From an uncultured Candidatus Saccharibacteria bacterium (GTDB taxonomy: Bacteria; Patescibacteriota; Saccharimonadia; Saccharimonadales; AWTP1-31), in contig CAZXLT010000004.1 in assembly GCA_964641545.1 (NCBI GenBank), positions 1 through 62,628 on the forward strand: 62,628 nucleotides of DNA, read 5' to 3'. Shown here in pieces: positions 9,730 to 52,225 of the stretch. Under the pieces are notes generated by a model. That model was not told the origin of the DNA, did not search any database, and was given only the letters and a program-made list of their open reading frames with translations. The first letter of the stretch is position 1; each line of letters opens with the position of its first letter. The position numbers were made by a program, and so were the translations under genes.

Positions 9730-9875
9730 AATTAAAGTCCCTAGCAAAGCTAGGGTTTTTAATTTGGTTTATTCGCGCAGCGAATCCGAACCCTAGGGTT
9801 CGGTCGGCAAAGCCAAGCGCATGAGCTTGCTCAGAGCATGGCTGTAATCGTGTGGCTGTCCCTTCGGGTGTACCA
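9730..9875 (+). repeat. tRNA-associated palindromic mini-element A, ending in an exact 18-bp copy of the tRNA-Arg 3' end
   Basis: gtcccttcgggtgtacca at 9712-9729 and 9858-9875; perfect palindrome ccgaaccctagggttcgg; core shared with element B at 24.1-24.3 kb. Confidence 0.8.
9739..9760 (+). terminator. Intrinsic terminator after tRNA-Arg
   Basis: ccctagc-aaa-gctaggg followed by TTTTT. Confidence 0.8.
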
Positions 9876-23628: not shown

Positions 23629-24063
23629 TTATTCGCTATTGAACGACTCTTTGTAGTTTGATCGAAATGCATTTGTAATCATTTCTTTAAGCACATCAAG
23701 ATCTACATCACTCAGAGATTTTATATACAGGCAGCCCTTGCCAACTTTATGAAGCCCAAGTTTTTTCAGCAATTCATTATTAGTTGTCATAAGGTCATAC
23801 ATCACAAGCCCATAAATAGTTAAGGCTTGCTTTCTAGGAGAAAAGCCAACTCGTAACGAGTCGCCTTCACGCCCCGACGGGTATTTGTAATGATAACTAC
23901 CATAACCAACTATGCTCGGACCCCACATAGCTGGCTCTTCGCCAGTACAATCTTTAAAAATTTCCAAGAGACGTAAACTATCTTGTTTCTTAGATTCACC
24001 TTCTACTGAATTTATGAAATCCAGGACGCTCGCGTTATTCTTCTGAGTTTTAAGCTCTGCCAT
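23629..24063 (-). CDS. DUF1801 (YdhG-like) domain protein, second paralogue
   Basis: MAELKTQKNN start, MWGPSIVGYGSYHYKY, GFSPRKQALTIY, GKGCLYIK; TACAAT 6 nt upstream of ATG 24063. Confidence 0.88.
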   Translation of the reverse strand: MAELKTQKNNASVLDFINSVEGESKKQDSLRLLEIFKDCTGEEPAMWGPSIVGYGSYHYKYPSGREGDSLRVGFSPRKQALTIYGLVMYDLMTTNNELLKKLGLHKVGKGCLYIKSLSDVDLDVLKEMITNAFRSNYKESFNSE

Positions 24064-24077
24064 ACTGTTATTGTAAC

Positions 24078-24103
24078 AAAAAACAGAGGCTGTTGCCTCT
24101 GTT
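24078..24103 (-). terminator. Intrinsic terminator distal to element B
   Basis: 9-bp stem aacagaggc/gcctctgtt with a 4-nt loop and a T-run on the minus strand. Confidence 0.75.
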
Positions 24104-24120
24104 CTAAGTATGACAAGGAT

Positions 24121-24286
24121 TGGAGGGCTACTGGGATCGCTTCGCTCTTTCGTTCTGTCATGCTCGAAGCAAGCTTCTGCGCGTGCCATCCATTTCACCG
24201 AACCCACTTTTGCCGTGAAAAGATCAGGGTTCTCGAATCCGGGGGCTACTATTAAAAAGACCCCAGACAAGCTGAGGACATTTCAA
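24121..24286 (-). repeat. tRNA-associated palindromic mini-element B, ending in a near copy of the tRNA-Lys 3' end
   Basis: Minus-strand TCCCAGTAGCCCTCCA (24136-24121) vs tRNA end TCCCAGTGGGCCCTCCA; 21/26 core identity with element A. Confidence 0.78.
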
Positions 24287-24363
24287 TGGAGGGCCCACTG
24301 GGACTCGAACCCAGGACACGTGGCTTAAGAGGCCACTGCTCTAACCAACTGAGCTATGGGCCC
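24287..24363 (-). tRNA. tRNA-Lys (anticodon CTT)
   Basis: Acceptor GGGCCCA/TGGGCCC, anticodon arm GTGGC-CT CTT AA-GCCAC, T-arm GGTTCGAGTCC, encoded CCA. Confidence 0.95.
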
Positions 24364-24422
24364 GGAATCGGGCTTAACCGAGAAATGTTAGCACACTACC
24401 CCTGTAAAAAGCAAGCGTTTTG

Positions 24423-50475: not shown

Positions 50476-50550
50476 GGCCTCATCTTCTAACGGTTAGGAA
50501 TCCGGGTTTTCATCCCGGCAATAGGGGTTCGATTCCCCTTGAGGTCACCA
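50476..50550 (+). tRNA. tRNA-Glu (anticodon TTC)
   Basis: Acceptor GGCCTCA/TGAGGTC, anticodon arm CCGGG-TT TTC AT-CCCGG, T-arm GGTTCGATTCC, encoded CCA. Confidence 0.93.
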
Positions 50551-52225
50551 TAAGGGAATTATTAGCTCTAAGGAGCGCAAATATCGGATTCACCCCTGTA
50601 AAAAGGGGTGTTTTTTGTGTTCCAGAATTTATATCATCGTAACTGGGTGCTTTATCGAATAACGCGGCGAAAAACAGTGCTTTTTTAACCGGATCAATCT
50701 GTTTTAGTAATAATTCGTCGAGGTGTTCGACAAAATATTTGACGCGCGCCAGGACTCGGTCAATCGGAACGGGTTTCTTAGCCTCTAGTTCCACTTTCCG
50801 AGCCTCAAGCTCATTAACTTGCTGTTCGATCCTCATAAGATCCTCCTCCATGTATTTAATTGCTGTACTGCTTGAAAGCATTCTAAGTTTGTCTAACGCT
50901 AGTGTTGCTTGGCCTTGCAAATCAGAAACCTTGGCATCAATTGATTCAATTTGCATCTTGTATGATGCATTGGACTTCTCCCAAGATGCTTCAATGATCT
51001 TAAACAAGGCATCAAGCTTATCCGGTGCGATAGTTAAACCAGAAACAAACTCTGCAACCCTAGTTTCTAAATCTTCTTTAGTCACTCTGAAGTAGTGGCC
51101 ACGCTTGTTGCAGTGATATGCCGGATAGTATTTGCCACTCTTGCCCCGTGAGGCGCTGCCTAGCAGCGGTTTGTTACATTGTGGACACATAATGACCTTT
51201 CGGTATGCAAAGTCGCCGTTTCGACGACCCTTGTTTGCTAGATGTTCTGGAGGTGCCTTGTCGAATACGTAGACTTTGTTATTAACACCCTCTACGATTG
51301 TTCGTTTGCCACCGTTCGCTTTATTAAACGCTTCTACAGACACTAAACCTTTAAAGACACACTTAACCGGCTCGTTGTTAGTCCACTTTTCCATATTCAC
51401 ACCTGCATAAATAGGATTACGGACTAACCGCCATAAGTGCTTGGATGTCAGTTTTGTGCCACCTACTTTTTTAACAACTTTGCTCGTATCAGTCTTACTA
51501 CGTATGTATTTAATGCGACCCTGATATCCGCTCTCATTGAGCATCTTGGCTATTTGGCCATCACTATATTTGCCAAGTGCTCGGAGCTCAAACATACGAA
51601 TTATAAACTTAGATTCTTCAGGGTGAGGGACAAGGATTGTTCGTTTACCGTTTTGAGTGTCTATTTTTTCACTCATAAATCCAAAAGGCGCCTGTCGCAT
51701 CCAGTAACCCATTTGGGTGTAGCGGATTTCGGCACCGATCATACGACTCATAATATCTCGAAGTTCGTCTTTGGATCGTTCAGCTTCAAGAATCTCGGAC
51801 TTTTTACTAGGCGAGTACACACTCCACTTATACTCGAAGCCGAGGTGATCGAGTGTATTAACTGTCTGTGAACTTATTACACCGTAAATGTCTATGAGAC
51901 GTACATTGTTTGCCTCTAACTGGTTTTTAAGAAGGTCATACGACAGTGAACCACCACGGGTAAATCGATCGATCGACTTGATAATAAATAAATCTATTCC
52001 ATTCTTTGGGTCTACGCAGTAATCGATAGCTTCTTGCATCGGTTGCTGTTCCTTACTGGCTGACTCTAGGAATACAAAGAATTTTTTAATTGTGATGCCT
52101 TTATTCTCGGCAAATCGCTCAGCTTGTTCTTTTTGGGCTTCTGGGGAATCACCATCAGTACCTTGCTTTGTAGTCGATACACGAATAGCGACAACGGCAT
52201 TCGTGCCTTTTACGCTGTCTTGCAT
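50510..52225 (-). CDS. Large serine recombinase (resolvase + recombinase + zinc-ribbon + coiled coil)
   Basis: AIRVSTTKQ (catalytic Ser), SIDRFTR, APFGF, NPIYAG, CPQC...YHC; the C-terminus reads antisense through tRNA-Glu. Confidence 0.9.
   Translation of the reverse strand: MQDSVKGTNAVVAIRVSTTKQGTDGDSPEAQKEQAERFAENKGITIKKFFVFLESASKEQQPMQEAIDYCVDPKNGIDLFIIKSIDRFTRGGSLSYDLLKNQLEANNVRLIDIYGVISSQTVNTLDHLGFEYKWSVYSPSKKSEILEAERSKDELRDIMSRMIGAEIRYTQMGYWMRQAPFGFMSEKIDTQNGKRTILVPHPEESKFIIRMFELRALGKYSDGQIAKMLNESGYQGRIKYIRSKTDTSKVVKKVGGTKLTSKHLWRLVRNPIYAGVNMEKWTNNEPVKCVFKGLVSVEAFNKANGGKRTIVEGVNNKVYVFDKAPPEHLANKGRRNGDFAYRKVIMCPQCNKPLLGSASRGKSGKYYPAYHCNKRGHYFRVTKEDLETRVAEFVSGLTIAPDKLDALFKIIEASWEKSNASYKMQIESIDAKVSDLQGQATLALDKLRMLSSSTAIKYMEEDLMRIEQQVNELEARKVELEAKKPVPIDRVLARVKYFVEHLDELLLKQIDPVKKALFFAALFDKAPSYDDINSGTQKTPLFTGVNPIFALLRANNSLMVTSRGIEPLLPG

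Follow-up and report, generated by a model that had tools for sequence, protein, structure and literature searches.

Element B lies on the minus strand of the window, the whole stretch of 62,628 nucleotides of Saccharibacteria DNA that we analyzed, in the region between the gene for tRNA-Lys(CTT) and the next gene, which encodes a protein of 144 amino acids (Table 1). The unit ends in a second, imperfect copy of the tRNA tail, which is found 151 nt downstream of the original and differs from it by one substitution and one missing base. The unit contains no open reading frame, and Rfam searches of the B region, at the gathering threshold and at an E-value of up to 10, matched the tRNA alone. 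A preliminary description of this DNA had named the tRNA tail and its near copy, the terminators, the GAACCCT stem with its inner stem, and the core; all of these parts are in place.

Table 1. Features in and around element B (positions are those of the window)
Feature	Positions	Strand	Sequence or remark	Basis
tRNA-Lys(CTT) gene	24287..24363	-	CCA encoded	ARAGORN; Rfam tRNA, 71.1 bits
tRNA-Lys tail (last 17 nt)	24303-24287	-	TCCCAGTGGGCCCTCCA; the repeated block	
Terminator 1	24253..24277; stem 24277-24261	-	CCTCAG-CTTGT-CTGGGG + TCTTTTT	Terminator scan
Diverged antisense T-arm-like segment	24225..24245	-	CCCCCGGATTCGAGAACCCTG	Sequence reading; duplex test
Hairpin H1	24197..24232	-	GAACCC/GGGTTC, variable tip; GAACCCT at 24232-24226, GGGTTCGGT at 24205-24197	
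Inner stem of H1	24222-24207	-	CTTTT-CACGGC-AAAAG	
Core hairpin	24156..24188	-	TGGCA-C-GC-GCA-GAAG-CTTG-CTTC-GA-GC-A-TGACA	Covariance model R1; covariation counts
Mini-hairpin	24139..24145	-	GCGAAGC, directly ahead of tail copy	Sequence reading
Imperfect tail copy	24121..24136	-	TCCCAGTAGCCCTCCA = TCCCAGT-AGCCCTCCA, 16 nt; tRNA positions 60-76	
Terminator 2	24078..24101	-	CAGAGGC-AACA-GCCTCTG + TTTTTT	Direct reading; absent from terminator-scan list
Next gene, 144 aa	ATG at 24063		Downstream of terminator 2	

Several parts of B are partial copies of a tRNA or recur in other elements. The 3' strand of hairpin H1, TGGGTTCG, is a copy of tRNA positions 50-57, that is, of the 5' half of the T-stem and the start of the T-loop. 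The antisense T-arm-like segment resembles CCCGGAC-GAGAAC of a related module behind a tRNA-Phe gene (L030) and also GGAUGAGAACC of the Escherichia coli RtT, and the GCGAAGC motif occupies the same place in the modules C21b and L042 and in the E. coli tyrT TLR1 as it does in B. The core hairpin of B consists of three helical segments with a CUUG tetraloop on a G-C closing pair, an RCA/GA internal loop, a bulged C and a bulged A, and it has one G·A mismatch in the basal helix.

A second element of the window, A (9730-9875, behind tRNA-Arg(TCG)), aligns with B at 73% identity. A degenerate pattern of 24 nt drawn from the core has exactly two matches in the window, A and B, with 0.00 expected, and B (24206-24155) reaches 57.7 bits with R1, a covariance model built on the 50-nt core (E-value about 1e-11, rank 11 of 57). 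The pattern counts and the model score together show that the likeness of the two cores is not due to chance, and the proposal that B is homologous to A and part of a conserved family holds.

A family of cassettes at tRNA 3' ends

About 10 of the 35 tRNA genes of the source genome (G000; 934 kb in 29 contigs, 45.5% GC) have their own last 17 to 23 nt copied again at a distance of 106 to 190 nt. They comprise the genes for tRNA-Arg(TCG), tRNA-Arg(GCG), which has two tandem units, tRNA-Lys(CTT), tRNA-Lys(TTT), tRNA-Ser(GGA) and tRNA-Gly(GCC), a tRNA cut by the start of contig C7, a tRNA-Glu-type pair on contig C8 and, at 2.67 kb, tRNA-Asn. The modules of this genome contain at least three unrelated inner sequences. 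Type 1 is represented by A, B, C21b, the module at the start of C7, the one on C8 and the one at tRNA-Asn on C1; type 2 stands behind tRNA-Lys(TTT) (C7:46253-46455) and tRNA-Gly(GCC) (C20:270-475); and type 3 is the first unit on C21 (C21:1898-2020, 106 bp, behind tRNA-Arg(GCG)).

Types 2 and 3 obey the same tail-copy rule, with an inner sequence that is unrelated to type 1, and in type 3 a small hairpin stands between tRNA positions 44-56 in antisense and a T-loop-to-CCA copy. The units behind tRNA-Arg(GCG) are different modules arranged in tandem. At tRNA-Asn (C1:63275-65947), 2.5 kb of cargo separates the tRNA and its terminator from the type-1 module and tail copy; it encodes an ECF-type sigma factor, a putative anti-sigma protein, a secreted coiled-coil protein and a 225-aa protein without an assigned function, and no recombinase. 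In many contigs (C3, C6, C7, C11, C17, C20, C22 and C24) a tRNA gene lies at or close to an end; such repeats, or strain differences 3' of tRNAs, may be where the assembly breaks.

Searches with R1 found at least 7 type-1 copies in the source genome and about 298 copies in 42 of 61 genomes of the same order, with a maximum of 21 per genome. The core was found in 36 of the 50 sampled genera of the order. Among 151 genomes drawn from the phylum, R1 matched solely the source genome and one other genome of the same order, and the core was absent from the approximately 144 genomes outside it. The linkage to tRNA genes is close: 38 of the 62 core matches in the fetched loci have a same-strand tRNA end no more than 130 nt upstream (chance expectation, well below 1%), and most of the remaining matches lie at contig ends, are second tandem copies or have cargo between tRNA and module. 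The tRNAs that carry type-1 modules represent 17 anticodon types and 13 amino acids. Type 1 is a family of gene-less folded cassettes attached to tRNA 3' ends throughout this order of Saccharibacteria.

The anatomy of the cassette was read from about 40 modules. It lies on the tRNA strand, flanked by two terminators, and runs from the terminator of the tRNA through an antisense T-arm-like segment, H1, the core and a short variable piece to the tail copy. The stem of the tRNA terminator mostly starts at the CCA (CCAnnn...nnnTGG), the antisense segment reads ...TTCGAACC or GAGAACC, and the variable piece 5' of the tail copy is often a mini-hairpin, GCGAAGC or GGAC-GAAG-TCC. The 3' strand of H1, GGTTCG, which corresponds to tRNA positions 52-57, is nearly invariant in 57 copies. 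In about one-third of the modules the sense copy in H1 (positions 44-57) is 8 to 10 nt long and cognate to the neighboring tRNA, and in that third the 5' strand of H1 is complementary to its tRNA copy. Among 29 loci, the first position of the tail copy is 59 in 14, 61 in 8 and 58 in 5; the copy ends exactly at the CCA, and position 58 is mostly T. With the tail copy covering positions 59-76, the copy in H1 and the core between them, the module reads as the 3' third of a tRNA with about 55 nt inserted at A58, and an inverted partial tRNA copy precedes that third.

Two general rules were tried and rejected. A full antisense copy of the cognate tRNA occurs in only about one-third of the modules (7 of 37 at rank 0), and B is not among them; identical terminators on both sides, as expected if duplication of the terminator were general, occur in 1 of 36 modules. 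For the family as a whole, the closing helix with the cognate tail shows a weak advantage (-9.0 versus -7.7 kcal/mol, p=0.06).

The core hairpin and the decay of B

We aligned 57 copies of the core over its 11-pair hairpin (626 cells) and compared the alignment with slid and shuffled controls. The hairpin, of 33 nt, is built from a 5-bp base, a bulged C, 2 bp, the RCA/GA internal loop, 4 bp and the CUUG loop, with a bulged A. Standard pairs fill 95.4% of the cells compared to 72.6% in the shuffles, and 10 of the 11 pairs have changed on both sides (142 cells). The score was reached by none of 500 shuffles, and the slid controls were paired at 32 to 38%. Invariant or nearly so are the CUUG loop closed by G-C and the bases C31, A32, G51, A52 and A55. 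CUUG tetraloops closed by G-C are a well-known motif of RNA, reportedly the subject of work by Jucker and Pardi in 1995. By eye, the junction and core had also suggested a hammerhead or a K-turn; both readings were rejected, as the positions proposed for G·A pairs show Watson-Crick covariation. The core is a selected structure, strongly conserved with compensatory variation.

G-U pairs outnumber A-C pairs in the core by 20 to 5 (p=0.004, with cells that are not phylogenetically independent), which suggests that the structure is read on the tRNA-sense strand, whether this is present as RNA or as single-stranded DNA. This strand signal belongs to the core hairpin only; whole modules fold equally well on either strand (20 of 37 favor the sense strand, p=0.8).

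The preliminary description had taken the variable insert within a conserved stem of B for covariation in a structured RNA or single-stranded DNA, and had asked whether homologs might lack covariation or conservation altogether. Compensatory variation in the family is real, and its clear location is the core hairpin (24188-24156 in B). The stem that had drawn attention is a different matter: GAACCC/GGGTTC is conserved in sequence and does not covary in the subfamily of B, and what varies in H1 is its tip only.

Outside its core, B is poorly kept. The extension of terminator 1 that pairs with the CCA in well-kept relatives is degenerate. Its 5' segment, CCCGGAT, is like that of the tRNA-Phe module (CCCGGAC) and does not pair with the tRNA-Lys tail, and a closing helix is absent: pairing with its own tail yields -5.5 kcal/mol versus a mean of -7.2 kcal/mol for foreign tails (rank 21 of 35). 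The 131-nt module of B folds no better than shuffled sequences (z=+0.85), whereas its relatives A, C21b and L030 and the well-kept L005 and L016 reach z-scores of -1.4, -2.0, -1.5, -3.9 and -5.1, respectively. In the sample compared, the closest relative of B shares 76% identity and stands behind other tRNAs, and modules behind tRNA-Lys(CTT) in other genera are no closer to it.

The decayed periphery and the lack of a close relative in the sample mark B as an old, solitary copy. Its imperfect tail copy, the missing closing stem with its own tail and the poor fold also bear out the earlier view that it is older than A. Because the tail copy and closing helix have decayed and the core is intact, B is probably no longer under full selection. 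B thereby shows how a copy decays, with the periphery lost first and the core last. In itself it is an ordinary decayed member of the family and adds little beyond this pattern.

Gain and loss of modules and their proposed explanation

The turnover of modules among congeners is real. Two congeneric genomes with identical tRNAs, G010 and G020, differ in occupancy at the tRNA-Phe, tRNA-Pro(TGG), tRNA-Gly(TCC), tRNA-Asn and tRNA-Trp genes, and the tRNA-Asp module of G020 has its core and tail copy deleted. At the Phe locus, the terminator of the empty site resembles the one that follows the tail copy, so that the terminator next to the tRNA would be the incoming one; contrary to this, the empty-site terminator of the Pro-TGG locus resembles the one ahead of the module. 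The module at tRNA-Gly(TCC) in G020 has a body of 87 nt flanked by a perfect repeat of 60 nt, which covers positions 58-76 and the whole terminator and is the sole case of its kind among 36 modules. In the congener comparisons, the region 3' of tRNA terminators is a hot spot for indels. For B, no orthologous empty site was found by way of the flanking proteins, exact-protein look-ups, congener DNA or a metagenome junction pattern.

Three further loci are of interest in this context. At C8:6633-6808 of the source genome stands a tail copy, TCCCCTTGGGCTCACCA, that has no tRNA; after it come a terminator, a type-1 module and the native tRNA-Glu tail in an exact copy. Two differences in the left copy would disrupt the acceptor stem, and this copy is unable to pair with the 5' strand of the native tRNA-Glu; the locus is probably a displaced downstream part of the tRNA-Glu locus. 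Its arrangement is as predicted by a Campbell-type gain of a unit made of tail, terminator and module. In G010 (C22:17160-18000; L090), a coding-like insert of 278 nt lies behind tRNA-Trp, with a degenerate T-loop-to-CCA copy as its boundary; in G020 the orthologous tRNA-Trp gene has a type-1 module instead, so different inserts use the same site. Finally, in our window (50476-52225), the minus-strand ORF of a large serine recombinase of 571 aa (50510-52225) ends inside the plus-strand gene for tRNA-Glu(TTC) (50476-50550). It seems to belong to a serine-recombinase island that integrated in the tRNA-Glu(TTC) gene, and no module follows it. The source genome has four large serine recombinases, three of them next to tRNA genes (on C4, C20 and C22).

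As the best explanation on the whole, we favor with some confidence that B is a decaying or partly decayed member of a family that is the Saccharibacteria counterpart of the tRNA-linked repeats (TLRs) of E. coli. The cassette would be transcribed in the sense of the tRNA, by polymerases that pass terminator 1 or that start at a site of the cassette itself. Its core hairpin would be a protein-binding or otherwise selected RNA motif, and the tail copy would give the cassette RNA a tRNA-like 3' end. We hypothesize that ordinary homologous recombination or template switching at the 3' block of the tRNA accounts for the gain, loss and multiplication of the unit of tail, terminator and module. The tRNA gene would be the left recombination arm and the 18-nt tail copy the right one, and the cassette would need no enzyme of its own. 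Such a route would also account for the exact end of the repeat at the conserved CCA.

Could B instead be a miniature integrative element, or an attL/attR scar, moved as a small circle by a recombinase supplied in trans, such as a large serine recombinase, a phage-type integrase or Xer? We consider this unlikely. Direct repeats of the tRNA 3' block do flank the unit, as they do at tRNA integration sites of the T-loop type, and such an element would fit the tandem array of different modules behind tRNA-Arg(GCG), the 2.5 kb of cargo at tRNA-Asn, the foreign left and native right tail copy on C8, and the position of three of the four large serine recombinases beside tRNA genes, one overlapping tRNA-Glu in the window. 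However, units of 106 to 190 bp without an ORF would form a circle that is very small for double-stranded recombination, 18-bp repeats are not what serine recombinases produce, and protein-binding arms would not account for a covarying hairpin with an RNA-type CUUG loop.

The distribution of recombinases also speaks against such an element. We counted matches to PF00589 (tyrosine recombinases), PF00239 (serine recombinases) and PF00078 (reverse transcriptases) and compared them with the number of modules in 61 genomes; module number did not correlate with any of them (rho of 0.08, 0.19 and 0.18, respectively). Nearly every genome has one Xer-like tyrosine recombinase regardless of its module count. 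Two module-rich genomes (G051 with 19 modules and G060 with 13) gave no tyrosine recombinase match, and in most of the others the Xer-like gene is the only one; four genomes with at least 5 modules (12, 9, 7 and 6) have no serine recombinase, and 11 module-free genomes carry at least two. Hence, a recombinase-driven mini-element is not supported. The suggestion of the preliminary description that a serine or tyrosine recombinase could excise B lacks support on the same counts, as copy number tracks neither enzyme family and the unit contains no ORF.

Next in order is the possibility that B is a functionless by-product of replication at tRNA terminators, formed by palindrome extension and template switching, with the likeness among modules due to descent or gene conversion. 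Sense and antisense partial tRNA copies do surround hairpins, folding of the whole module shows no strand asymmetry, one young copy has the perfect 60-nt duplication of tail and terminator, and indels are concentrated behind terminators. Against this, a core has been kept over about 298 copies, with compensatory double changes, an invariant loop and invariant bulge bases; G-U pairs exceed A-C pairs (20 versus 5); and the cassettes persist in streamlined genomes of about 0.9 Mb with few other repeats. We regard this origin as improbable and retain the reading of B as a decayed member of the TLR-like family.

Retroviruses copy the tRNA block 59-76 up to m1A58, and the tail block of the modules runs from position 59 to the mature CCA end, with mainly a T at position 58 of the copy. 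A self-addressed RNA-guided or retro-mobile element, with an antisense T-arm or 18-nt tail that targets or primes on its tRNA, is nevertheless far-fetched: antisense and sense tRNA segments are cognate in about one-third of the modules, but the cognate antisense segment is missing in the other two-thirds, B included; the source genome has no RVT_1 match, like 48 of its 61 relatives, and in the 13 that have one it is uncorrelated with copy number; and the TLRs linked to 5S rRNA in E. coli obey the same 18-bp rule without a T-loop (PMC8144298). The last two points also led us to reject a stop of reverse transcriptase at m1A58 as the origin of the 18-nt block.

Comparison with E. coli TLRs and other tRNA-linked elements

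Integrative elements that use the tRNA block from the T-loop to the 3' end reportedly belong to the P4-type sites described by Williams in 2002. The attL/attR duplications of tRNA genes share with the family a direct repeat from the T-loop region to the CCA, tandem accretion and occasional cargo; unlike these, the inserts of the family measure 106 to 190 bp and contain a covarying hairpin, with no nearby integrase and no correlation with recombinases. Cis-mobilizable elements (CIMEs) and elements of the IMEX type, which use a recombinase borrowed from the host, are likewise nonautonomous units bounded by attachment-site repeats, but they need a known recombinase and a defined site, neither of which was found for the family. 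A tRNA-primed retroelement would share the 18-nt block 59-76, but G000 contains no RVT_1 domain. As regards the bridge RNAs of IS110/IS1111, there is no ORF of the size of a DEDD recombinase next to the B unit.

The closest resemblance is to the TLRs of E. coli, which are said to go back to Egan and Landy in 1978 and to Rudd in 1999 and which include the RtT RNA of tyrT-tyrV and RrA, RrB and RrF behind rrnA, rrnB and rrnD. Each of the 22 TLRs of E. coli K-12 lies behind a tRNA or rRNA gene, between two terminators, repeats at its end the last 18 to 19 bp of that gene without mismatch, and has no assigned function (Stenum et al. 2021, PMC8144298). Read-through transcription reaches the three TLRs downstream of rRNA operons, and these three bind both Hfq and CsrA in vitro (PMC8144298). 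A preprint on the E. coli mobilome describes elevated coverage at the tyrT-rttR region and no circular DNA there.

We read the tyrT-tyrV locus of E. coli directly (L041; NC_000913, 1286640-1287640). Its repeats TLR1-4 all show, in this order, GGGGAAGG-(G/A)TGAGAA-CCTTCGA, the antisense of tRNA-Tyr positions 68 to 47, then a loop of 2 to 3 nt, AAGGTTCGA (sense 50-58), a core of about 63 nt and AATCCTTCCCCCACCACCA (sense 58-76). In the consensus structure of Rfam RtT (RF00391), the antisense segment is paired with the tail copy. Antisense positions 47-68 and sense positions 50-58 ahead of the RtT core place this core at A58 of a partial tRNA copy, a reading of the sequence that we did not find stated in PMC8144298.

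The family and the TLRs of E. coli have much in common and share one building plan, insertion point included. Both are gene-less, 100 to 180 nt long, situated just downstream of a tRNA or rRNA gene and in its orientation, with dual terminators and tandem copies, and both repeat at their 3' end the last 18 to 19 nt of the upstream gene, of which B has a 16-nt imperfect copy. Both also contain an antisense T-arm, a short hairpin ending in AGGTTCGA (tRNA positions 50-58), a core at A58, a mini-hairpin of the GCGAAGC type and the tail copy. B has the TLR placement, downstream of tRNA-Lys in the same orientation and with two terminators, and the inner order of antisense T-arm, sense 5' half of the T-arm, core and tail copy. 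The two groups differ in the sequence and fold of the core, which is the CUUG hairpin in Saccharibacteria, in the phylum of the host and in the far larger number of tRNA loci occupied per genome (about 10 of 35 in the source genome).

The RF00391 model had no match in B (24050-24400, E-value of up to 10), and none of 41 relatives scored above the cut-off of 45 bits, compared to 133 to 138 bits for the E. coli control. The best score in the relatives, 24.5 bits over the full length, came from a tRNA-Val module that carries GGATGAGAACC, as RtT does. Because the model is unmatched, we file the family as built like TLRs and not as RtT. Judged by its layout, the family appears to be the Saccharibacteria counterpart of the TLR kind known from E. 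coli and a new variant of it, of which we found no printed description in the literature searched.

The TLRs of E. coli have been without an explanation since 1978. The family adds hundreds of diverged copies in tiny, streamlined genomes, a covarying RNA motif that can be used as bait in pull-down experiments, and a precise anatomy common with RtT, with the core at A58 and a tail copy of positions 59-76; the differences in occupancy among congeners allow gain and loss to be tested. Moreover, some Saccharibacteria can be cultivated and are naturally transformable, so the function and spread of the modules are directly testable. A wider idea, which we put forward tentatively and hold to be doubtful, is that TLR-type cassettes form one pan-bacterial class of self-propagating tRNA-tail cassettes, with cores at position 58 and a spread that is free of enzymes. 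Such a class would comprise E. coli RtT, RrA, RrB and RrF together with the three module types of the source genome. Each core would be a lineage-specific functional RNA set into position 58 of a partial tRNA copy, and, with the full tRNA gene as left homology arm and the 18-nt tail copy as the right one, a cassette taken up as DNA could enter still empty alleles of its ultra-conserved tRNA gene through plain homologous recombination.
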